A DNA stretch of 64,000 nt from an uncultured Bacillales bacterium (GTDB lineage: Bacteria > Bacillota_I > Bacilli_A > RFN20 > CAG-826): positions 133,765-197,764 of the forward strand of contig CAMKPL010000002.1 in the NCBI GenBank assembly GCA_946414655.1, in the 5' to 3' direction. A model generated the notes under the pieces. That model was not told the DNA's origin. It did no database searches and saw nothing but the letters and a program-made list of their open reading frames with translations. Position numbers and translations under genes: made by a program. Numbering within the stretch: position 1 is the stretch's first letter; every line of letters starts with the position of its first letter. Below, one piece after another: positions 2,175 through 49,108 of this stretch.

Positions 2175-4185
2175 TTATTTATCAAATTATCACGAAATAT
2201 GCATTCCTAACCACATCCTCGGATCTGGTTTTTCTCTTTTTATTAATAACGAAGAAAGAGAATGTCAATTTGTCAGTAATACTGACAAGGTTTTATATTA
2301 TAACATTTCAGGAAATGATGAAATTCTTGATAAAGAAATCATTTTAAAATATGGTGATCAACAAGAGCATGTCGATGTGACAAAACTTGCTCTTTTATTG
2401 GACTTTGATGATATCTACGCTACTGATATTGAGCTTGGACCAATCTGTCATGATGATTACACGATCTTTCGATTATGGGCTCCGTTTGCTTCAAGTGTCG
2501 TTTTATCTATAGATAACGCCTCATATAAACTTCAGCGTTTAGACCGTGGTGTATATGAAATTCGTGTTGATGGTGATTTAGATGGTCATCTTTATCAATA
2601 TGAAGTAACCGTGAATGGTCAAAAACACGTCGTAACCGACCCATACGCGAAATCAAGTAATGCCAACGGAAAAGAGTCTGCCGTAATTAATCTATCTCGC
2701 TTAATGCGTTCATTTAAAAATGTCGTCGTGGAAAAGACATATAGCAAACTTAAAAGCAGTATCTATGAATTACATGTCCGTGACTTCACGATTCAACAAA
2801 CAACCAACATTGTTCATAAAGGAAAATATTTAGGTTTAACCGAGGAAAATCGCGTTACAAAACAGAATCATCATTGTGGTTTAGATTATTTAAAGTTCCT
2901 TCACGTGAGTCATGTTCAACTTCTTCCGGTGCTAGATTTTGAAACAGTGGATGAAATTAAAGGTGGTTATAACTGGGGTTATGACCCAGTATCTTTCTTT
3001 ACTTTAGAAGGAAGCTATTCCTTAGATCCAAATAATCCGTTTTCAAGAATGGTGGAGTTCCGTGAACTTGTTGATTCGTTACATAAAGCAGGATTGAGAG
3101 TTAATCTCGATGTGGTTTATAACCACATTTACAATGGGGCGAGACAAAATCTAAATGTTATTACTCCACATTACTTCTTAAGAGAAGAAAATGGAAAACT
3201 TGCTAATCATTCTTGGTGCGGATGTGATTTTGCTAGCGAGAGAAAAATGGCTCGTCGGCTAATTAAAGAATCGATCGATTTCTTAATGAAAACTTATGAT
3301 GTTGATGGCTTCCGCTTTGATCTTATGGGTCTAATTGATTTAGAGACAATGAAAGAAGTGACAAATCTCATTTTATCTAACAAAAAAGAAGCCCTTGTTT
3401 ACGGTGAAGGTTGGGATATGAACGCCATCACTTTTAAAGATGAAAAACTCGCCACAATCAAAAATAGCCACGAATTGCCTGACGTTTCGTTCTTTAATGA
3501 CACATATCGTGACATTATGAGAGGCCATGGTGGACACGCTAAACTCGACGATAACGGATTTCTTTTGGGTAACACATCGTATGTCGAAGGTTTTAAATTT
3601 GCTTATCTTGGATCATCAAAAAACTTAACATATCCAAAGCTTTTTGATAACCCAAGTCAATCTATCAACTATGTTGAGTGCCATGATAACGCAACGCTTT
3701 ATGACGTTATAAATGAATCAACCGAAGATATTGATGTTTTAAGAATGGTGAAACTATTTAATAAAGTTATCATGTGTTCGGTTGGTATCCCATTTATTCA
3801 TATGGGACAAGAAATCGGTTTAACCAAGCACAACCAAAGAAATACATATAATTTAGGTGATTATTATAATCAAATGGATTATGACATTTTGGATGAACGC
3901 TATGACATGGCACAGTCATTTAGACACTATAACCTCGCTCGTCAGCATGCTGATTTTTTAGATAATCTAGATTTAAACAATGTTAGTTTTACGTCTCCTA
4001 AAGAAGGTGTGCTAATCGCGACCTGGAATGGGGAAAGAAAATATAAATATTGTTTCAATGTAACGAAACAAGAATTTGCCTTGCCAAATAGTGAAAGTTT
4101 CTATAATTATTCAAAGAATAATAATCGAGTAGAAGAAACAATTTATCTTCCACCTTTCCGTTGTACTTATTTATTAAAGGATTAA
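2167..4185 (+). CDS. Type I pullulanase / alpha-1,6-glucosidase (GH13), cytoplasmic with no signal peptide.
   Basis: GH13 conserved regions I-IV: 'YNWGYDP', 'GFRFDLMG', 'GEGWD', 'YVECHDN'. Overlaps the ftsK stop by 8 nt. Confidence 0.8.
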   Translation: MNSYLSNYHEICIPNHILGSGFSLFINNEERECQFVSNTDKVLYYNISGNDEILDKEIILKYGDQQEHVDVTKLALLLDFDDIYATDIELGPICHDDYTIFRLWAPFASSVVLSIDNASYKLQRLDRGVYEIRVDGDLDGHLYQYEVTVNGQKHVVTDPYAKSSNANGKESAVINLSRLMRSFKNVVVEKTYSKLKSSIYELHVRDFTIQQTTNIVHKGKYLGLTEENRVTKQNHHCGLDYLKFLHVSHVQLLPVLDFETVDEIKGGYNWGYDPVSFFTLEGSYSLDPNNPFSRMVEFRELVDSLHKAGLRVNLDVVYNHIYNGARQNLNVITPHYFLREENGKLANHSWCGCDFASERKMARRLIKESIDFLMKTYDVDGFRFDLMGLIDLETMKEVTNLILSNKKEALVYGEGWDMNAITFKDEKLATIKNSHELPDVSFFNDTYRDIMRGHGGHAKLDDNGFLLGNTSYVEGFKFAYLGSSKNLTYPKLFDNPSQSINYVECHDNATLYDVINESTEDIDVLRMVKLFNKVIMCSVGIPFIHMGQEIGLTKHNQRNTYNLGDYYNQMDYDILDERYDMAQSFRHYNLARQHADFLDNLDLNNVSFTSPKEGVLIATWNGERKYKYCFNVTKQEFALPNSESFYNYSKNNNRVEETIYLPPFRCTYLLKD

Positions 4186-5016: not shown

Positions 5017-6285
5017 TCCCTTCGGATATAAGTTCTTTAGAACTCCATTTACGGAATGAACGCATCCAAGATTCATTCCTAGATACGAAACGAAATAATA
5101 GCCCTCTGGGTTATTTTTTCTAATTTGATTTCCGCTTAGGTATTGGACAACTTCCTCTCGAGTAAGTTCGATGCTATTTCTGGCTGAGACGGCATGAGAG
5201 AAGTGGTGGGAAGGAATCTCTTTGTTATTAATAATTGACTTTGTTAGTAATCCTGGACGAATAGATAATTCAATCAGGCGTTCATCAATCTTATTTTTTA
5301 AATGAAAAACTTGCGTTTCTTTGGAGTTTCCTTTGGTTTGAACAACACGTTTGATGTCAATTTCTTCGACCCGATTTTCACTTAAAATTCCTGGTTTTGT
5401 AATTAAGGCAATGTAGTGTCCCTCCCCAGGAAACATGTTTGGAAAAAAGTGTATGGTTTCCGGATATTTTTTTGAGCGGAAATTGCCGGTGATTTCTGGA
5501 ATTCGTTTGAGTTTTGCTGGTGTTTTTTGAAGGAGATATTCGACGACTTCTTCGTCTTCTTCATATGAATATGAGCAGGTTGAATAAACGAGAGTTCCTC
5601 CTTCTTTTAACATGGAAAAGGCCATCAAAATTAGTTCCTTTTGAATGGCAGAATATTTTAAGACTTTTTCATAAGTCCAATCTTTTTTCATTTTCTCGTT
5701 TTTACGAAACATCCCCGATCCGCTACAAGGAGCATCAAGGATAATTGCGTCAAAATAATTCAGGTAATTCTGAGATATTTTTGAGAAGTCTAGTGATGTT
5801 ACAACAACATTATCAAGACCCATTCTTTCAACGTTTTGAAGAAGAGTTAATGCTCTTGGTTTTGATAAATCGTTTGAAACTAGAATCCCGTTTTGATTGA
5901 GTCTTAATGAAGCTTGAACAGTTTTTCCTCCTGGTGCCGCACAAAGATCAAGAATCCTTTCATTTCCTTGTAAAGGAAGAAGGGAAGCAACAATAGCGGC
6001 GCTAGGATCTTGAATATAATACGCGCCTTGTTCGTGATAAATCATTTTTCCTAAGTCATATTTACTTTGGTCATACAAGAAGGCATGTTCTACGAACGGA
6101 TGTCTTCTAAGACGAGGAAAAAGATTAATGAAAGCCTCATCGCTCATTTTCTTAAAGTTTAAATAAACGCCTTTGTGCTCCTTTTCATCGAAAGATGAAA
6201 TAAGACCAGAAATTTCACTTTCTGTTAAATACTTTTTTAAGTGGTTAGTAAAATCCATATCTTTATTATTAAATAAAACAAACAC
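4981..6285 (-). CDS. rRNA cytosine-C5 methyltransferase, RsmB/RsmF (NOL1/NOP2/Sun) family. Start may be the internal Met at about 6258.
   Basis: SAM-binding motif 'DLCAAPGGKT', catalytic 'DAPCSGSGMFRK', C-terminal PUA-like region. The 3' ends overlap plsC by 36 nt (convergent). Confidence 0.75.
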   Translation of the reverse strand: MFVLFNNKDMDFTNHLKKYLTESEISGLISSFDEKEHKGVYLNFKKMSDEAFINLFPRLRRHPFVEHAFLYDQSKYDLGKMIYHEQGAYYIQDPSAAIVASLLPLQGNERILDLCAAPGGKTVQASLRLNQNGILVSNDLSKPRALTLLQNVERMGLDNVVVTSLDFSKISQNYLNYFDAIILDAPCSGSGMFRKNEKMKKDWTYEKVLKYSAIQKELILMAFSMLKEGGTLVYSTCSYSYEEDEEVVEYLLQKTPAKLKRIPEITGNFRSKKYPETIHFFPNMFPGEGHYIALITKPGILSENRVEEIDIKRVVQTKGNSKETQVFHLKNKIDERLIELSIRPGLLTKSIINNKEIPSHHFSHAVSARNSIELTREEVVQYLSGNQIRKNNPEGYYFVSYLGMNLGCVHSVNGVLKNLYPKGLRINAKIDDSF

Positions 6286-9237: not shown

Positions 9238-9242
9238 AAGAA

Positions 9243-9270
9243 AACACACCATAAGGTGTGTCTTTTCTTA
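9243..9270. terminator. Bidirectional rho-independent terminator between the convergent genes mnmA and the ABC ATPase.
   Basis: Hairpin ACACACC-ataa-GGTGTGT followed by CTTTTCTT. Confidence 0.5.
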
Positions 9271-10269
9271 TCTATTGATTGATTTAGCTTCTGCTTCATC
9301 AAACATATTGAGCAGATGTTCAACTGTGAGATTTTGTTTTTCTTTTCCGGAGATGTCGTGAATGATCTTTCCTTCATAGAACATGATTAAGCGGTCACCG
9401 TAAGTAATCGCATCACGCATGTTATGTGTGACCATGAGGGTGGTTAGTTTATTCTCACGGACAATCTTTTCTGTTAAGGCAAGAACCTTCTTGGCGGTTT
9501 TTGGATCAAGCGCTGCAGTGTGCTCATCAAGAAGAAGAATTTGTTTTGTGAGATCGTATTTACGAATCTTGGCATCAAATTCATCATATAAAGCACGCTT
9601 TTTGGCGCGTTTTTCTTTGCAAGAAAGTTTCTCCTTAGAAAGTTCTTTTAAAGCCTCTTTGTAGGCTTGTTTAGCATCATTATAAACTCTCGTCACTTCT
9701 TGTTTGGCTTTTTCTTTATCACCAATATAGAAAGTCGAATAATCTTTAATGATTTGTTTATGCGATGGTTCAGCTCTTAATGTTGCCATTAACAATGTTA
9801 ATGCTTGACGTTGTCCGCCAGAAAGAACACTTGTTTTAGTTGTTAAACGTGTTTCTAATCCAAGATTGAAACTCTTTAACATCTCAATGTATTTTTGTTT
9901 TTGTTCTTTGTTGATGTACCAACCTAAACCATTATGTCCGCCTTTACGTGAGGCAATCGCCATGTTTTCAATGACTTGCATTGATCCAGCAGTACCTTTG
10001 TTCGTGTCTTGGAAGACACGGGCGAAGTATTTAGCGCGTTTATTCTCTGGCATGTTGGTAATATCAACATCGTTAAGTAAAACAGCGCCTTGATCTGGAT
10101 TCATATTTCCAGTAAGAACATTTAATGTAGTTGATTTTCCGCTTCCGTTTCCACCAATAATAGTGACAAATTCGCCATCATTTATGGTGAAAGAAACATT
10201 GTTTAAAGCAACTTTTTCATCAGCTGTTCCTTTGTAGAAGACTTTTGTAACGTTTTTAAAAGATAACAT
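9268..10269 (-). CDS. ABC transporter ATP-binding protein, COG1101-like. It carries an about 78-aa Lys/Glu-rich insert between the signature motif and Walker B.
   Basis: Walker A 'GGNGSGKST', signature 'LSGGQRQ', Walker B 'ILLLDEHTAALD', H-loop 'THNM'. Insert is 'RAEPSHKQ...KIRKYDLTKQ'. Confidence 0.8.
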   Translation of the reverse strand: MLSFKNVTKVFYKGTADEKVALNNVSFTINDGEFVTIIGGNGSGKSTTLNVLTGNMNPDQGAVLLNDVDITNMPENKRAKYFARVFQDTNKGTAGSMQVIENMAIASRKGGHNGLGWYINKEQKQKYIEMLKSFNLGLETRLTTKTSVLSGGQRQALTLLMATLRAEPSHKQIIKDYSTFYIGDKEKAKQEVTRVYNDAKQAYKEALKELSKEKLSCKEKRAKKRALYDEFDAKIRKYDLTKQILLLDEHTAALDPKTAKKVLALTEKIVRENKLTTLMVTHNMRDAITYGDRLIMFYEGKIIHDISGKEKQNLTVEHLLNMFDEAEAKSINR

Positions 10270-11180
10270 TATTTAGCCTCCTTTGCTCGTTGATGTTTTG
10301 ACTTCGCATTCTTAATATATACATTTTTAATGTATGGTACAGCAAGGAAGATGGCGACAACAATTGCTGAAAGCATCTTTAATAATTCTGGTTCGTTTGT
10401 GACATAGACAATGAATTGGAAGACAAAGAAATAGATAATTGCGCCAACAGTAACAAATCCCATATTAAGTGCAAAATTCTTTGATAAACGACCAAATAAA
10501 GTTGTTCCAATAACAATGGCAGCTAATCCAATGACGATTGCTCCTCGACCCATATTAATATCAGCTGAACCTTGGAAACGAGCAAGTACTGCTCCGGCAA
10601 AAGCAACAATAGCATTGGAAATCATTAACGCAATGATTTTACGGGCATTAACATTAATACCGTTTGCTTTGGCCATCGCTTCGTTTGAACCAGTCGCACG
10701 AATAGATGACCCATATTTGGTTCCAAAGAACCAATACAATGCTAGAATGAGGATGGCAGCGATGCCAATAACAATTGGAATTGTCGTATAAACACCTGAA
10801 CTAGCATTCATCGAAATGAGTGCGTCACGTGAATTAATTGGCATTGATGCTTGACCTAAGATCTTGTAGTTAATTGACCAGAGCATTAACTGAGTTAAAA
10901 TACCAGCCAAAATCCCTGGAATTCCTAGATAACAGTGGAGTAAGGCTGTAATTAAACCAGCCGCAGCTCCAGCAAAGAAGGAAATAAGAAAACCAAGTGG
11001 AACAGGAACACCAGCCGCTGTAAGGATGGCAAATAAACATCCTCCAGTAGCAAATGATCCATCAACAGTTAAATCAGCAAAATCCAAGATTTTGAATGTG
11101 ATAAAAACACCAATGGCCATAATTCCCCAAATGATGCCTTGGTCTAGAACAGATGGTAGTGTGTTAAAAAATCCAGCCAT
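10269..11180 (-). CDS. ABC transporter permease, COG4120 / branched-chain-type BPD_transp_2 family.
   Basis: Polytopic membrane protein. Translationally coupled to the downstream ATPase gene (start/stop overlap). Confidence 0.75.
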   Translation of the reverse strand: MAGFFNTLPSVLDQGIIWGIMAIGVFITFKILDFADLTVDGSFATGGCLFAILTAAGVPVPLGFLISFFAGAAAGLITALLHCYLGIPGILAGILTQLMLWSINYKILGQASMPINSRDALISMNASSGVYTTIPIVIGIAAILILALYWFFGTKYGSSIRATGSNEAMAKANGINVNARKIIALMISNAIVAFAGAVLARFQGSADINMGRGAIVIGLAAIVIGTTLFGRLSKNFALNMGFVTVGAIIYFFVFQFIVYVTNEPELLKMLSAIVVAIFLAVPYIKNVYIKNAKSKHQRAKEAK

Positions 11181-11196
11181 TTTATTTGCTTAAAAA

Positions 11197-12183
11197 TTAT
11201 TCGAGTGGTAAGACTTCGTAACCAGCATCTTCAGGAACATCAATTCCTAAAGCTGTACAACGGGAAGGAACATAAAGTTTCTTCACATTGGTATCGTATT
11301 GAATTTCGTATTCACGAATATCTTTTTTACCAAGTAAAATGTTGAATGCCATTTCACCAGTGATTTCACCTAAACGGGTGTAATCAATGGATAATGTGGC
11401 AAAGCCACAACCTTTACAAATGCCAGATTCTCCAGCAAAAACTGGGACACCAGCACCTTCAAATACTTGGTTAATCGAAGCAGTGTTATCAGCACAGAAG
11501 TTATCTGTTGGGATATAAATCACATCTTCTTTAGAAGCGGCAGTATTACAAACTGATGTTAATGTGTCGGATCCAGAGATTGGATAAGTAGAAACTGTTT
11601 TACCAGCATCTTCTAAATGCTTCTTGACTTCATCAACTTGGAATTTGGAGTTAGCTTCGCTAGCGGAGTATAAAATACCAAATTTTGTTGCATCTGGGCA
11701 AAGTTCTTTCATTGCATTAACTTGTCCATCAAGTGGTGCAAGATCGCTTGTTCCAGAAACATTAGTTTTTGTTTTTCCACCTTCAACTTCAATACTACAT
11801 GCGACACCAAAATCAGTTACAGATGTTCCTAAAATAGGAATATAAGATGTGGCAGTGTAAGCCGCAGATAAGCATGGAGTAGCATTAGCTAAGATTAAAT
11901 CAACATCTTTACTAACTAAAGTCGAAATAATGGTTGGGCAGTTAGCTTGATCACCAGCAGCATCGGTTTGAACAAATTCGATTTCACGTCCTTCCGCAGT
12001 AAGGAGAGCGGCTAATTTGGATTTAAAACCGTTTGTTGCTGCATCAAGAGCAACGTGAGGAACGAACTGAGCAATACCTACAACATATTTTTGTTTGTCT
12101 GGGTTAACTTTAATGTCAGTTTTTCCACAACCTGCTAAAGCAGTAATCGCGGCAACGCCGAGGAGTAATGAACCTTTCTTCAT
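11197..12183 (-). CDS. ABC transporter substrate-binding lipoprotein, ABC_sub_bind/COG2984 family.
   Basis: Lipoprotein signal 'LAGC'. First gene of a three-gene importer operon. RBS AGAGGT upstream. Confidence 0.75.
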   Translation of the reverse strand: MKKGSLLLGVAAITALAGCGKTDIKVNPDKQKYVVGIAQFVPHVALDAATNGFKSKLAALLTAEGREIEFVQTDAAGDQANCPTIISTLVSKDVDLILANATPCLSAAYTATSYIPILGTSVTDFGVACSIEVEGGKTKTNVSGTSDLAPLDGQVNAMKELCPDATKFGILYSASEANSKFQVDEVKKHLEDAGKTVSTYPISGSDTLTSVCNTAASKEDVIYIPTDNFCADNTASINQVFEGAGVPVFAGESGICKGCGFATLSIDYTRLGEITGEMAFNILLGKKDIREYEIQYDTNVKKLYVPSRCTALGIDVPEDAGYEVLPLE

Positions 12184-12219
12184 AATTTTTACCTCTAATC
12201 ACTTTCTATTTATGTTTAA

Positions 12220-12237
12220 TTCACCTTATTTGGTGAA
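12220..12237. promoter_or_regulatory. Perfect inverted repeat TTCACC-N6-GGTGAA in the divergent intergenic region; candidate operator.
   Basis: Lies 37-54 bp upstream of the ABC operon start codon and about 160 bp upstream of the HTH-trpB start. Confidence 0.35.
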
Positions 12238-12344
12238 AGTTTTCTAATAATTTGATAATTATCTGAAATTTAAACGGTGCTTAAATTCTACAAAATTTAA
12301 TGAAAATTGTATATAAAAATTTTTTTATGAAATTCCAAATGTTC

Positions 12345-12373
12345 TTGAAATCGCATTATCGGTATTTTATAAT
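12345..12373 (+). promoter_or_regulatory. Sigma-A-type promoter for HTH-trpB
   Basis: TTGAAA - 17 bp - TATAAT, then RBS GAGGAA 8 nt before the ATG at 12400. Confidence 0.45.
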
Positions 12374-13800
12374 TGTGCCGAAAGTTGAGGAACGGAACAA
12401 TGTATATTTCAGTCAAAGAAGCCGCAGAAAAGTGGGGAATTAATGAACGCCGTGTTCGTCTTTTATGCCAAGAAAACCGTATCGAAGGTTTAAAAAAGAA
12501 AGGCAAAGCTTATCTTATTCCAGATAATGCACCAAAACCACTTGATCGAAGAGGCAAAACAAATCCGATTAAAATTAATAAGAATAAAGAAATAAATTTC
12601 GCGACATATCGTAAAGAATATCCGACAAAAGACGGTTATTTTGGTGAATATGGTGGGTCTTATTTTGATGAAAAAACAAACAAGATTTTCCAGGAAATTT
12701 ATAATGCCTACCTCACCATTTGCAAATCCTCGAAATTTATCAACGAATTACGTGAAATCCGCAAGAATTACCAAGGAAGACCAACACCAGTTTATCACTG
12801 TGAACGTCTCTCGAATTACCTTGGAAAAGTTCAAATATATTTGAAAAGAGAAGATTTAAACCATAATGGTTCCCATAAACTAAATAACTGCATGGGACAA
12901 GCTCTTTTGGCAAAATATCTTGGTAAAACTAAGTTAATTGCCGAAACTGGAGCTGGTTCTCACGGCTCTGCTGTGGCAACTGCAGCAGCTTATTTTGGTC
13001 TAAAATGTGACATTTATATGGGCGCTGTTGATATGGAAAAACAAGCACCAAATGTGAACCGCATGAAAATGCTTGGAGCAAGAGTTATTCCAGTTTATGA
13101 AGGCACTCAAACTCTAAAAGAAGCTGTTGATGTTGCTTTTGTAAATTATTTAAAAGAATCTAAAGATGCTTTCTATCTTATGGGATCGGCCGTCGGACCT
13201 CATCCTTATCCGCTAATTGTTAGGGATTTCCAGGAAATTATTGGTCGAGAAGCACGTGAACAGTTCTTAGAAATGACTGGAGAATTGCCTGATATTGTTT
13301 GTGCGTGTGTCGGTGGTGGAAGTAACGCTATCGGTATGTTTGAGGCTTTCTTAAATGATCCAGTCCAAATTGTTGGTGTTGAACCAATGGGTACCGGAAA
13401 GGAAATCGGCAAAAATGCCGCATCCATGACTTTCGGCAAACCTTATGTTCTCCATGGATTTAAGAACCGTGTTTTATTAAATAAAGACGGTAGTGTGGCA
13501 AATGCTTACTCCATTGCATCTGGCTTAGATTATCCAGGCGTTGGACCAGAGCACTGCTTCCTTCATGATATTGGTCGAGTAGAATATGATAGTGTGACTG
13601 ATGAGGAAGCGTTAGAAGCTTTTAAGCTTCTTTCAAGACTCGAAGGTATTATTCCAGCAATCGAATCAGCTCATGCACTAGCTTATGCTATTCGTGTTGC
13701 TCGTACTCGTCATTCTGGTTCAATCCTTGTCAATTTAAGTGGACGAGGAGATAAAGATCTCGACTACATCATGAAAAAATACCCAGAAATTCTTGAATAA
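12373..13800 (+). CDS. trpB: Tryptophan synthase beta subunit (TrpB1-type) fused to an N-terminal HTH DNA-binding domain. Probable true start is the ATG at 12400 ([13 protein letters not shown]...).
   Basis: Core is collinear with E. coli TrpB: '[17 protein letters not shown]' (PLP lysine), 'GGGSNAIG', '[12 protein letters not shown]', 'NLSGRGDKD'. N-terminal 60 aa '[39 protein letters not shown]' matches the common Firmicute stand-alone HTH family. No trpA is adjacent. Confidence 0.8.
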
Positions 13801-18799: not shown

Positions 18800-18967
18800 A
18801 ATATGGTTTACATTTGTAAAAAAATGTTTACAAACACTTTCATTAATAATATATTAATAAGCGTTGTCGCCTCACAAGCTACAACCGCATAGAAAAGGTA
18901 ACTAACTTATTACTCATAGTAATAGACCTTAATAGCGAGTCTTGAGTGAGAAAGTCGAGGTATATTT
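18800..18967 (+). promoter_or_regulatory. rplU 5' leader region containing two short palindromes; possible L21-leader autoregulatory RNA.
   Basis: Palindrome TTTGTAAA-N7-TTTACAAA overlaps a TTTACA(-35)-17-TATATT(-10) promoter. Second palindrome ATTACTCATAGTAAT. The 168-nt untranslated leader is typical of Firmicute rplU operons. Confidence 0.3.
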
Positions 18968-23818: not shown

Positions 23819-26512
23819 ATGCGTCGTTTAATTGCTTATATCTCGATGGTCATCGCCATCTTAATCGGTGTTGGCGTATCTTTTGCTCCAACATTTACCA
23901 AAATGAAAGAAGGTCGTGAATTCGCTTCTGGTCGTGAAATTGTCTTTACCCTTAAGGATAAAGAAAATGAAGCTGATCCAGTAAAAGCAGATGCCGCAGA
24001 AAAAGTTGCCGATATCATGAAGGAACGTTTAGACCTCATGAATGTCGAAGACTATTCTGTTAAGATTGGCACAAACAAAGACGACCCAAGCCAAGTTTAT
24101 GCAGATACGATTTCTGTTTCTTTCTCAACCCAAGACGACACCTTATTTAACTATGTTTCTCGTTTACTTGAATTCTCCGGTAAGGATTTCTCTTTAAGAG
24201 GAAACCTTGATGAAGCCTTTGCTGAAAACGTCTTTAAAGACGTTGAAGCTTATATTTATCGTGATTCAGGCACAATTCCTTATGTTATTTTCCCTGTTTC
24301 CGATAGTGAAGCCGTCAAAACTTTCTTAAAAGTTGTTAGCGGTGAAGATGAAGAATCAGAAGATTCTGGAGCAAAAAGTCTCCTACTTCCAAAATTCGCT
24401 GAAGCTGATGAAGGCGAAGGAGAAAGCGAAGAAGAAGGCGAACAAAAGAATCCAGATGTTTTCCTTTGTGGAAACTGGGGTGATGATGACTCCATTGAAA
24501 AAGCATCTGAAAACCCATATTCAGCCGAGAAGGTTATTTGTTCTTGGAACCACGAGAACATTTGGAACCCAGATTCAAAAGAAGCCGAAACTGAATTACG
24601 TTTCCTCTGTGGATCTGCCAATGAATCCGGTGAATACGATTTAACCGCTTTAAAGAAAGCGAACCAACAAGCATCATTCCTTTTAGGAATGTTTAACGCA
24701 AAAGAATACGAAGTCGCTGTTGAAAACAAGTTTAAAGACGTCACCGTTGATGGTGGGATTAAATATAACTATCTCACTGTTGAAGCTTCTTATGAAAACC
24801 TCATTTCCTTTGAAGGAAATAGCACTAAGCTTGCTTGGTCAGCGACACTTAAAGCAACTTTAATTGGTGTCGTCATTGTTTCTTTACTTTTAGCAATGTT
24901 CTTCCGTTTACAATCTTTGGCCGCGATTGCAACAAGTTTATTAAGCTTGTTCTTCACGTATTTACTATTCTTCGCCATGACTCCAACATTTAATGTTGCA
25001 GCCATTGTTGGAGGTATTGTTGTTGCTCTCCTTTCGATTTTTGGTGAAATTGTTTATATGCATCGCTTCCGTGATGAAGTTTATAAAGGACGTAGTTTAA
25101 AGAAAGCTAATACTGAAGCATTTAGACGTTCAAACTTAATTGTTCTTGATGGAACAGTTTTAGTTGGTGCAAGTGGATTACTCTTCTACCTTCTTGGAGG
25201 TGAAGCTTTAAAATCATTCGGAGTGATCGCTTTCTTTGGTGCAATTATTTCCTTTGTTTTATTCCACATTGTCTATCGTATTTTGAATTGGCTTTTAGCC
25301 AATACAACAAATATTCAAACTAAATATAGTTTGTTTAATATTGACGAAAGCAAAGTTCCAAACATTGCTCTTGATGAAAAGCCAAACTTTGAAAGCCCAT
25401 ATGAGAAAACCGATTTTACTAAGAAACGCAAAGCGTTAGGTATTGTTGGTGGCGTCTTATTGGTTGCTTCCTTAGCTGGTATCATCACTTTTGGTGTATT
25501 AAATGGTTCACCAATTAACACCAAGAAAGCATCAGATGATCACTCAGTCATCTATACATCAATTCAAGCTGATGATGACAGATTAAATTCCACACTCTTT
25601 AGTGATGAAATCTTAGCCAAGATTGTTATCGACGGCAAAGCCGTTAACGTGAAAAATGTTTCTGTCGAATTTAAAGAAACAAAGAGCTACGATCTTGATG
25701 AAAAACTCGAAAAGACAACATATCAATATGTTGCTAAATTCGATAATGTGCTCTCCAACGATAAAGTCCAATACAAGGATGGAGAAGATTTAAAAGATGC
25801 GGAGAATTTACAAGATGCGGTAGTTAATCTTGTTGAAAAATATGAAATTATTGAAAATGGTGTCACTGCCGATGTTCGTGTCACCGGTGAAACTGTTTCA
25901 ACTCCAAATCAAGGCGAAATTGCTTTAGCAACCGGCATTACTTTAGCAGCCGCATTTGTCTACTGCGCTTTCCGCTATCGTTTATCTCGTGCTTGTAGCT
26001 TACTTGTTGTGAGCACTGGTGTGACAACCGTGACATACGGATTACTCACACTTACACGTCTAGCCACATCATCCGTGAGCGCAATTTTACTTCCAATCGT
26101 TGCCATCTCATCCTTATTAACTGCTCTCTTCTACTTAAGTAGAGAGAAAGAACTTGATAAAGAAGAAAAGGCCTATGATGCTGAAAAGCGAAGCGCACTT
26201 GTTGCTCGCGCTGCTTCACTTAGTGCATTACCAGTATTCACTTTTGCATTAATTGGTGGATACCTAGCGATTAACTTCTTTGGTTTTGGACCAGTTGAAT
26301 TAACAATCCTCTTTGGTGCAGTGATTGTCGGAACAGTATTAACTGTTCTTGCAGTGCTCTCACTTATGGGTCCACTTGCTAGTGTCTTTGATCGCTTATT
26401 CAGCAAGGTTCGCTTACCAAAATTACGCCGTCATAAAGAAAACAAACAACATTCGCTTAAACCAAAAACAAGTGAACCACAAGAAACAATCTTTATCGGT
26501 ATTAACGACTAA
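23819..26512 (+). CDS. secDF: Fused protein-export membrane protein SecDF (897 aa) with an about 180-aa acidic, Cys-containing insertion in the first periplasmic domain.
   Basis: 12 TM segments in two blocks with periplasmic domains. Conserved SecD/SecF TM motifs. Insert is 'SGEDEESEDSGAK...GEGESEEEGEQ...FLCGNWGDDD...VICSWNHE...FLCGSANESG'. Confidence 0.85.
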   Translation: MRRLIAYISMVIAILIGVGVSFAPTFTKMKEGREFASGREIVFTLKDKENEADPVKADAAEKVADIMKERLDLMNVEDYSVKIGTNKDDPSQVYADTISVSFSTQDDTLFNYVSRLLEFSGKDFSLRGNLDEAFAENVFKDVEAYIYRDSGTIPYVIFPVSDSEAVKTFLKVVSGEDEESEDSGAKSLLLPKFAEADEGEGESEEEGEQKNPDVFLCGNWGDDDSIEKASENPYSAEKVICSWNHENIWNPDSKEAETELRFLCGSANESGEYDLTALKKANQQASFLLGMFNAKEYEVAVENKFKDVTVDGGIKYNYLTVEASYENLISFEGNSTKLAWSATLKATLIGVVIVSLLLAMFFRLQSLAAIATSLLSLFFTYLLFFAMTPTFNVAAIVGGIVVALLSIFGEIVYMHRFRDEVYKGRSLKKANTEAFRRSNLIVLDGTVLVGASGLLFYLLGGEALKSFGVIAFFGAIISFVLFHIVYRILNWLLANTTNIQTKYSLFNIDESKVPNIALDEKPNFESPYEKTDFTKKRKALGIVGGVLLVASLAGIITFGVLNGSPINTKKASDDHSVIYTSIQADDDRLNSTLFSDEILAKIVIDGKAVNVKNVSVEFKETKSYDLDEKLEKTTYQYVAKFDNVLSNDKVQYKDGEDLKDAENLQDAVVNLVEKYEIIENGVTADVRVTGETVSTPNQGEIALATGITLAAAFVYCAFRYRLSRACSLLVVSTGVTTVTYGLLTLTRLATSSVSAILLPIVAISSLLTALFYLSREKELDKEEKAYDAEKRSALVARAASLSALPVFTFALIGGYLAINFFGFGPVELTILFGAVIVGTVLTVLAVLSLMGPLASVFDRLFSKVRLPKLRRHKENKQHSLKPKTSEPQETIFIGIND

Positions 26513-48177: not shown

Positions 48178-48195
48178 TCATATAAAGTATGATGT
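48178..48195. promoter_or_regulatory. Palindrome ATCATA-N5-TATGAT in the short divergent intergenic region between the crp/fnr-like gene and the ABC operon; candidate operator.
   Basis: Inverted repeat seen directly. Located immediately upstream of the SBP start codon. Confidence 0.3.
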
Positions 48196-49108
48196 GTCTA
48201 TGAAAACAAAGAAATTATTTTTACTCCCAGCACTCCTTCTAGCTGGCTGCTCTATCGATAGTCAGGAAAAACTATCCATTCTTACTCCAACGGGCGCTCC
48301 AGCGGTCGTTTTTGCATCGTTTTTAAACGATTCTAACTTCAAAGTCATTGATCAACCAGCGAATATTATTGCCCAAATGGTCAATGAAAATGTCGATATC
48401 GCTGTTTTACCAACAAACGTCGGAGTTCAGCAAATTGCAAAAGGTCTCAAGTACAAAATTGCTTCAACAATCACATTTGGAAACCTATTTATTTGTTCGA
48501 CTGGACTAGATGAAGACGGCGTTATGGGTGATGACGATTATATCGTCTCATTCCAGGAAAATGCTGTTCCAGACAAAATATATAAGGCTGTTTATGATGT
48601 AGCAGTTGATTATTACGCAACAAATGCCCAAGAAGCTGCAAAGTGTTTAAAACTAAAACGCGATGTTGTGAATAGCAAAGATGTTGATTATGTCTTAATG
48701 GCTGAACCAGCTATTAGCAAACAAGAATCTATCGGAACTGACTTTAGCATTTATGCTAATCTTCAAGAACAATATCAGACGAAGTACGATAATCAACAAA
48801 TCTTTCAAGCCTCAATTTTTGTTCGTGATTCATTATCTCATGAGCAAGTTGATCCTTATTTAGGTCGTATTAAATCCTATGTTTCTTCCTTAAAAGCTAA
48901 TCCTTCTCTTTTAGAGAATGCAAAACAATTAGACCCAAACGCCGAAACAACTTTAGGAATTGATATTGCAGCAACTGTGGCGGCAATTAAAAAAGATAAT
49001 GCCATCGGTATCGGTTATGAAGTTGCCTATGAACACAAACACGAGATTGATACATTCTTAAAAATCTTTGGCATGACGGAGACTAATGAAGAAATTTATT
49101 ACAAATAA
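48194..49108 (+). CDS. ABC transporter substrate-binding lipoprotein, NMT1/THI5-like/NitT-TauT-type fold; specificity unknown.
   Basis: Lipobox 'LLLAGCS'. GTG start in track. 304 aa. Confidence 0.6.
   Translation: MSMKTKKLFLLPALLLAGCSIDSQEKLSILTPTGAPAVVFASFLNDSNFKVIDQPANIIAQMVNENVDIAVLPTNVGVQQIAKGLKYKIASTITFGNLFICSTGLDEDGVMGDDDYIVSFQENAVPDKIYKAVYDVAVDYYATNAQEAAKCLKLKRDVVNSKDVDYVLMAEPAISKQESIGTDFSIYANLQEQYQTKYDNQQIFQASIFVRDSLSHEQVDPYLGRIKSYVSSLKANPSLLENAKQLDPNAETTLGIDIAATVAAIKKDNAIGIGYEVAYEHKHEIDTFLKIFGMTETNEEIYYK

Follow-up and report, generated by a model that had tools for sequence, protein, structure and literature searches.

A TrpX-family importer back to back with an HTH-trpB gene in an uncultured Bacillales bacterium: probable tyrosine/phenylalanine uptake and a putative stem-loop in the importer leader

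Introduction

In a 64,000-nucleotide stretch of DNA from an uncultured Bacillales bacterium (GenBank assembly GCA_946414655.1, contig CAMKPL010000002.1, positions 133,765 to 197,764 of the forward strand; the whole stretch is called the window below), a three-gene ATP-binding cassette (ABC) importer, consisting of a substrate-binding lipoprotein (SBP), a permease and an ATPase, is encoded back to back with a gene that joins a helix-turn-helix (HTH) module to TrpB of tryptophan synthase (HTH-trpB). The spacer between the SBP gene and HTH-trpB (12184-12399, 216 bp, 24% G+C) contains a perfect inverted repeat, TTCACC-N6-GGTGAA. A first-pass annotation made from the sequence alone suggested that the importer and the neighbouring TrpB form a tryptophan/indole salvage module, and that the repeat is an operator-like site shared by both units, perhaps bound by the HTH. 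The locus therefore raises two questions, namely which substrate the importer carries and to which of the two units the repeat belongs. We hold, with moderate confidence, that the importer is of a tyrosine/phenylalanine type, that the repeat is a hairpin of the importer's own leader, and that HTH-trpB is a separate unit with a control element of its own.

Results

The coordinates of the importer genes and HTH-trpB, the length of the spacer and the perfect repeat at 12220-12237 all agree with the open reading frame (ORF) map and the raw sequence. The three importer genes lie on the minus strand and overlap or abut (Table 1). Their products constitute a PF04392/PF02653/ABC-ATPase (COG2984-type) importer, in which the SBP matches PF04392 at 149.6 bits against a gathering score of 25.9, and these matches bear out the earlier assignment to the TrpXYZ-containing family. 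Within this known family the importer is a new member, of the ordinary three-component type. The best NCBIfam match of the SBP is the TrpX equivalog NF041285, but at 195.3 bits this match reaches half of the cut-off of 390 and so misses it; by this score the SBP is a member of the TrpX family but not a TrpX equivalog.

Three solved relatives of the SBP each bind an aromatic amino acid, which is tyrosine for CD0873, tryptophan for SP1069 (3LFT) and phenylalanine for VC_1101 (3LKV) (PMC6816091). Among these three matches CD0873 (6HNI) is the best by sequence score (1e-40). Its specificity is set by Glu263, which hydrogen-bonds the tyrosine hydroxyl, and by Tyr279, which blocks tryptophan; the tryptophan binder has Ala/Gln at the two positions and the phenylalanine binder Ala/Tyr (PMC6816091). 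Placing the pocket residues by HMMER alignments and by a MAFFT alignment of 128 sequences, we found that the window SBP has Glu (context FAGESG) and Tyr (context SIDY) at the positions of E263 and Y279. The same pair occurs in 120 of the 120 nearest database homologues, in the variants of the locus that were checked (L003, L081, L082 and L089; numbers of this form denote loci from the survey of relatives described below) and in the importer of the syntenic locus L091. The other six pocket positions read HTSTDN in the window SBP and HTASDN in CD0873. Since the SBP also keeps the residues contacting the alpha-amino and carboxylate groups (residue list from the TrpX paper), its ligand should be an alpha-amino acid and not free indole. 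Given that the Glu can hydrogen-bond a para-hydroxyl and that the Tyr sterically excludes an indole ring, the substrate of the importer is most likely tyrosine and/or phenylalanine, rather than tryptophan or indole; taken together with two leaders of relatives (below), the pocket supports tyrosine and/or phenylalanine much better than tryptophan. The earlier expectation of a ligand that is tryptophan or a related aromatic thus holds insofar as the solved family members bind aromatic amino acids, but fails for tryptophan and indole themselves.

The first-pass annotation had also leaned on T-box regulons as a link between this transporter family and tryptophan. That link is missing here: no T-box (RF00230) was found at the gathering score in the 64-kb window or in 10 related loci, no Rfam family was matched at E <= 10 in the interval 12100-12480, which holds the leaders of the importer and of trpB, and an Rfam search of the leaders of the 10 related loci gave neither a T-box nor any other riboswitch. 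A tryptophan T-box is not universal for TrpXYZ, being present in Streptococcus suis and S. pneumoniae and absent in S. pyogenes. Two leaders elsewhere bear on the substrate. In L161 a T-box (2669-2915, plus strand; 102 bits) immediately precedes the gene of P0203, a homologue of the Glu/Tyr type with 51% identity. Ahead of the closing helix, the specifier loop of this T-box has the sequence GAA-UUC-A; in our own reading, by analogy with the glyQS arrangement, the specifier would be the phenylalanine codon UUC. In L081 and L140, which carry the type-C importer cassette described below, the leader contains an ORF of 23-24 codons (L081 7766-7837, minus strand, MNRNFAIISSSNSYFSYCYFYFR; L140 2842-2916, minus strand, MNRILMNISSSSNYYFSFGYFYFR) with a Tyr/Phe-rich end holding four of each residue (for example ...YFSYCYFYFR in L081). 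Between this ORF and the ribosome-binding site (RBS) of the SBP gene lie alternative stems and a terminator-like hairpin, CCCGG-N9-CCGGG, with a T-run. The arrangement looks like ribosome-mediated attenuation, which would be unusual for Bacillota. By analogy, the T-box of L161 and the leader peptide of L081/L140 are independent hints of tyrosine/phenylalanine uptake. The window's own leader has no ATG and no leader peptide, only a 6-bp hairpin.

This hairpin corresponds to the TTCACC-N6-GGTGAA repeat. On the minus strand of the spacer, TATACA/TAGAAT is the only conserved sigma-70-like promoter, and conservation of the spacer across 12 aligned loci peaks in the block that contains it. An A/T-only inverted repeat overlapping its -10 box (Table 1) may be an operator, or simply promoter sequence. 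Transcription of the importer would start near 12278; counted from this predicted start, the leader is 95 nt long and the repeat occupies about +41 to +58, so that it would follow the predicted promoter of the importer and stand 108 nt away from the -35 box of trpB. The stem of the repeat forms in both the minimum free energy and the centroid folds of the leader. Two ideas about this region were discarded: an extended -10 for the importer promoter, in which the TG is out of register, and CodY-like and TRAP-like sites seen by eye in the spacer, which are weak matches and not conserved.

Taken by itself the repeat is mildly unusual. For the pattern TTCACC-N6-GGTGAA with at most one mismatch, the expected number in the whole 64-kb window is 0.11 (a post hoc test), and an inverted repeat with at least three G/C per arm arises in 2.2% of composition-matched simulations of the spacer. 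Irrespective of sequence, perfect 6+6 inverted repeats abound there, with 8 observed and at least one present in 77% of such simulations. What makes the repeat credible is that related loci conserve its arms. TTCAC/GTGAA arms were found in 11 of 15 unique spacers; of the four without them, L001 and L082 have different hairpins at the equivalent place in the leader, and L081 and L140 have the long attenuator-like leader. In all 10 related leaders for which the distance was computed, the arms stand 33-38 nt from the SBP ATG, and the spacer between the arms measures 3, 4, 5, 8 or 9 nt among the relatives (5 nt in L097/L099). A search of the 400 nt upstream of HTH-trpB for TTCAC-N(2-10)-GTGAA gave a match in 9 of the 13 loci with the importer and in none of the 46 loci lacking it, and the element therefore belongs to the importer. 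This combination of constant arms, constant distance from the start codon and changing loop length agrees with an RNA stem-loop and not with a dimeric DNA operator; judged from these alignments, the repeat is most likely a small RNA stem-loop in the 5' leader of the importer mRNA. RNAalifold returned no structure for 11 importer leaders, in which MAFFT had misaligned the hairpin arms, so that this outcome is uninformative and not a negative.

On the other side of the spacer, HTH-TrpB consists of an N-terminal HTH of ~50 aa, a linker of ~25 aa and a complete TrpB. The TrpB part reaches the TrpB1 equivalog (TIGR00263, 528.9 bits against a cut-off of 392.45), and the HTH gives a weak match to HTH_17 (PF12728, E = 1.6e-4). 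The HK(160) motif and the GGGSN motif, which we take to be the catalytic lysine and the pyridoxal phosphate (PLP)-binding motif of TrpB, are invariant across 13 fusions, as are the HTH residues. The fusion is widespread, with more than 120 database clusters of ~470 aa at 69-95% identity; our literature search found nothing relevant on it, and a PDB sequence search found no solved relative of the HTH and linker. The HTH module (12400-12560 in the window) is a very common one: 2913 representative clusters contain it, for the most part as stand-alone proteins of 60-160 aa, and in some proteins it occurs in 3-7 tandem copies.

The predicted promoter of HTH-trpB, a strong one whose -35 box is ~31 bp from that of the importer, is kept in all loci of the close clade, and its -10 box is bracketed by an imperfect inverted repeat (Table 1). 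Of 56 unique regions upstream of HTH-trpB, 48 have the right half-site (consensus TATACCGA) at 19-26 nt from the start codon, most often at 23 or 26 nt. It is present whatever the neighbouring genes, with a degenerate inverted copy upstream of it. The more distant group of HTH-trpB genes has the half-site pair just downstream of the -10 box, and four divergent loci (L142, L122, L135 and L137) have their main copy in complement orientation, ~36 nt ahead of the start codon, and further copies at varying places. No copy of the half-site was found near the importer promoter in any locus. Across the window the half-site motif WRTRCCGA is not enriched (12 matches against 10.2 expected), and therefore no regulon can be claimed. 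In 91.7% of cells, against 23-44% in slid controls, the right half-site can pair with the start-codon region; covariation of this pairing was not above shuffles. We prefer a role at the DNA level, because the predicted transcription start in the window's clade follows the half-site. The pair at 12359-12381 is, from its position and conservation, a candidate autoregulatory DNA site for the fused HTH and a better candidate than the repeat at 12220-12237.

Whether the two units belong together was considered through their co-occurrence in 59 de-duplicated loci besides the window, gathered from genome and metagenome scans and 12 contig look-ups; the genome contig scan gave mostly generic TrpB loci (L004-L080), which were left out of later analysis. 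A divergent PF04392 importer lies upstream of HTH-trpB in 13 of the 59, all of which share the mnmA...alaS synteny and have a TrpB 71-100% identical to that of the window. The remaining 46 loci (L084-L088 and ~40 metagenome loci) have HTH-trpB without the importer, and in 27 of them at least 1.5 kb of upstream sequence is available. In L091 the reverse is seen: an importer lies between mnmA and alaS without trpB, in place of which stands an ORF of 139 aa (5428-5847, plus strand) that has no Pfam match. The nearest records are metagenome-assembled genomes labelled Bacillales/Caryophanales and Erysipelotrichaceae. The divergent arrangement thus does recur in related genomes, as a paired unit would lead one to expect, but it is confined to one syntenic clade: in our reading, the adjacency is inherited synteny in one clade of uncultured Bacilli and no widely conserved functional module.

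Comparison of L003, L081, L094, L098, L140 and L164 revealed three divergent importer cassettes at the one site between mnmA and HTH-trpB. Their SBPs are 58-100% (type A), 49-50% (type B) and 34-35% (type C) identical to that of the window. In two pairs of loci the promoter and leader are closely similar although the types differ, the leader of L003 (type B) being like the window-type leader and that of L094 (type C) like the L089-type leader; L081 and L140, also of type C, have the long leader of their own. This indicates that it is the coding cassette that has been exchanged, and suggests, on these sequence comparisons, repeated replacement of the cassette of a surface lipoprotein system at this locus. 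An apparent case of two importer types on one contig was rejected, the proteins being on different contigs.

Compared with the window SBP and CD0873, the type-B SBP (L003 6766-7782, minus strand; also L092, L097-L099, L164 and L165) is circularly permuted, with the C-terminal lobe first: window residues 169-319 align with type-B residues 27-177, and window residues 27-161 with type-B residues 197-331. Around 59 database clusters have the permuted order as well. An AlphaFold model of the permuted SBP is confident, with a predicted local distance difference test score (pLDDT) of 89 and a predicted template modelling score (pTM) of 0.84. In Foldseek, CD0873 and 3LFT align with no more than half of this model, the outcome that a permutation predicts. 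The ATPase of the window also has a feature of its own, a Lys/Glu-rich insert of ~75 aa (about nt 9547-9792, residues ~160-241) between the LSGGQ signature and Walker B that is probably helical; in an alignment with EcfA2 (4MKI), query residues 159-242 match chain residues 158-166. ATPases at this locus have 330-365 aa with the insert, and those of the more distant homologous operons L160, L161 and L163 have 264 aa without it.

Discussion

In the arrangement that we favour, the surface lipoprotein SBP, the permease and the ATPase would import an aromatic alpha-amino acid, likeliest tyrosine and/or phenylalanine, and would be transcribed leftward from their own predicted sigma-70-type promoter. 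The repeat, ~40-60 nt into the 5' leader, would act as an RNA stem-loop, its likeliest roles being modulation of mRNA stability or of translation, or recognition by an RNA-binding factor. HTH-trpB would be a separate, back-to-back transcription unit with its own promoter, and its HTH would bind the pair at 12359-12381 in autoregulation.

Several points weigh against this arrangement. Two pocket residues, calibrated against three crystal structures, are the basis for the specificity call, and the phenylalanine T-box of one relative and the tyrosine of CD0873 disagree on the preferred amino acid; by analogy with that T-box, the two-residue 'tyrosine' signature may also serve phenylalanine uptake. 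The hairpin is short (6 bp), the folding z-score of the whole leader is only -1.95, and the stem is conserved in sequence rather than covarying, so that the RNA pairing stays putative. The transcription start is a prediction, and a start elsewhere could put the repeat at the promoter. In addition, every HTH-trpB gene of the close clade has an adjoining importer despite at least two importer cassette exchanges, and this adjacency could reflect selection.

These points have to be set against what the alternatives explain. The salvage module first proposed, in which the importer supplies an orphan TrpB with tryptophan or indole-type compounds and co-regulation of both units comes from binding of the HTH to TTCACC-N6-GGTGAA, draws on an SBP family that includes proven tryptophan importers, on TrpX as the best NCBIfam match, on a divergent arrangement found in all close relatives and on the lack of any other trp gene in the 64-kb window. 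We nevertheless give it very little credence. The pocket holds Glu/Tyr and not Ala/Gln, the SBP falls under the TrpX cut-off and there is no T-box. The repeat is absent from all 46 importer-less HTH-trpB loci, while a different element accompanies HTH-trpB everywhere; the repeat stands 108 nt from the trpB -35 box and downstream of the predicted importer promoter, its variable arm spacing of 3-9 nt does not suit a dimeric operator, and an operator shared with HTH-trpB is not supported. An importer without trpB in L091, together with 46 HTH-trpB loci without the importer, likewise speaks against a dedicated two-unit module. A looser bond between the units, namely an aromatic amino-acid acquisition locus in which tyrosine/phenylalanine import and tryptophan synthesis from scavenged indole were selected as neighbours in an aromatic auxotroph, each with its own promoter and control element, would account for an adjacency that outlasts at least two importer cassette replacements (types A, B and C) while TrpB stays 71-100% identical, for the Glu/Tyr pocket in all three cassette types and for a TrpB that stands apart from other trp genes in every context seen. 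This is in our view unlikely, as the whole mnmA...alaS neighbourhood is syntenic and the adjacency perhaps simply inherited, L091 has the importer at this site without trpB, and the more distant HTH-trpB genes never adjoin such an importer.

Two further alternatives concern the repeat itself. In one, the repeat is bound as DNA by a different, unlinked regulator of the importer and serves as a roadblock operator beyond the promoter. The conservation of the arm sequence without covariation speaks for it, and so does a G+C content that is unusually high for the spacer; we regard this as improbable, because the distance between the arms shifts by 1 to 6 bp among relatives, which moves the half-sites to different faces of the helix, and because the TTCAC...GTGAA orientation is the reverse of that in Rex-type and CRP-type boxes. 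That the repeat is a functionless chance palindrome in a recently diverged spacer would agree with the frequency of palindromes in A/T-rich spacers and with its absence from L001, L082, L081 and L140, but is very improbable: the arms persist at a constant distance from the ATG in strongly diverged leaders (the window, L089 and L098 types), and L001 and L082 have other hairpins in the same stretch. Beyond the arrangement that we favour, we put forward, tentatively and as a possibility, that HTH-TrpB is both an enzyme and a transcription factor acting on the TATACCGA-type half-sites of its own promoter in response to indole, serine or tryptophan at the TrpB active site, and that it is kept beside a surface-exposed tyrosine/phenylalanine importer whose coding cassettes are repeatedly exchanged under a constant promoter and leader, one form with a permuted SBP, in an aromatic amino-acid acquisition locus under diversifying selection.

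Among known systems, the CD0873-CD0875 tyrosine importer of Clostridioides difficile (6HNI/6HNJ/6HNK; PMC6816091) has a lipoprotein SBP of the same family (PF04392), the same Glu/Tyr pair and the same backbone-binding residues; the window SBP is a distant relative of it, and the window system differs in the ~75-aa insert of its ATPase, in a leader with a small hairpin and in a ligand predicted from sequence. TrpXYZ of S. suis and S. pneumoniae SP1069 (3LFT; NF041285; PMC9382623) shares the three-gene architecture and the families, whereas the window SBP scores at half the equivalog cut-off, has Glu/Tyr instead of Ala/Gln and lacks a tryptophan T-box leader. With the phenylalanine SBP VC_1101 of Vibrio cholerae (3LKV) the window SBP has the fold and the tryptophan-excluding Tyr in common, but VC_1101 has Ala where the window SBP has Glu. 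Leader-peptide attenuators of the pheA type and T-box leaders are used by related cassettes (L081/L140 and the phenylalanine T-box of L161, respectively), and the leader of the window has neither. HTH-TrpB recalls the enzyme-regulator fusions MocR/GabR, BirA and PutA, in that it likewise joins a DNA-binding module to an enzyme, here a PLP enzyme, with a half-site pair over its own promoter as the putative site. MocR/GabR proteins combine a GntR-type HTH with a PLP domain of fold type I; HTH-TrpB differs from them in having a complete TrpB of fold type II and a small HTH_17-like module that is not of the GntR type.

Annotated as 'TrpX-like', the importer would be read as the tryptophan/indole salvage partner of TrpB, although it is more probably a tyrosine/phenylalanine importer, and this matters for the metabolic reconstruction of uncultured gut and rumen Bacilli. 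For substrate calls in PF04392, the two pocket residues should decide and not the family name. The promoter element of HTH-trpB, the exchange of importer cassettes and the circularly permuted SBP subfamily may be of interest to specialists in protein evolution and regulation.

Other features of the window

The features of the locus are collected in Table 1, with coordinates counted from the first nucleotide of the window.

Table 1. Genes and sequence elements of the importer/HTH-trpB locus.
Feature	Position	Strand	Remarks
ABC ATPase	9268-10269	-	333 aa; PF00005, 85.3 bits
Permease	10269-11180	-	303 aa; PF02653 BPD_transp_2, 92.3 bits
SBP lipoprotein	11197-12183	-	328 aa; lipobox LAGC; lipoprotein signal MKKGSLLLGVAAITALAGC
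RBS GAGGT of SBP gene	12191-12195	-	Read from sequence
Inverted repeat TTCACC-TTATTT-GGTGAA	12220-12237	-	Arms 12220-12225 and 12232-12237, perfect; 36 nt upstream of SBP start codon
A/T-only inverted repeat TTAAATT-N6-AATTTAA	12281-12300		Overlaps importer -10; kept in 11 of 12 aligned spacers
Importer promoter, predicted	12313-12285	-	-35 TATACA (12313-12308), 17-nt spacer, -10 TAGAAT (12290-12285); consensus scan
HTH-trpB promoter, predicted	12345-12373	+	TTGAAA, 17-nt spacer, TATAAT; 11 of 12 consensus positions
Imperfect inverted repeat TCGGTATT-N7-TGTGCCGA	12359-12381		Halves 12359-12366 and 12374-12381; brackets HTH-trpB -10 TATAAT
RBS GAGGA of HTH-trpB	12387-12391	+	Read from sequence
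HTH-TrpB	12400-13800	+	466 aa; ATG at 12400
Hairpin between convergent mnmA and ATPase gene	9241-9264	both	Terminator-like; consensus scan

HTH-trpB is accompanied by no second trp gene within the 64-kb window. The other genes are housekeeping genes, including ftsK, rsmF, a pyrimidine-nucleoside phosphorylase gene, dtd, mnmA, alaS, ruvX, greA, obg, ruvAB, relA, hisS, aspS, tkt, dxs and gyrAB. Two ORFs on the plus strand, 23819-26512 (897 aa) and 48194-49108 (304 aa), have no Pfam match at E <= 1e-5. The only Rfam family above its gathering score in the window is the ribosomal protein L21 leader (RF00559, 43.8 bits), at 18873-18952 on the plus strand.

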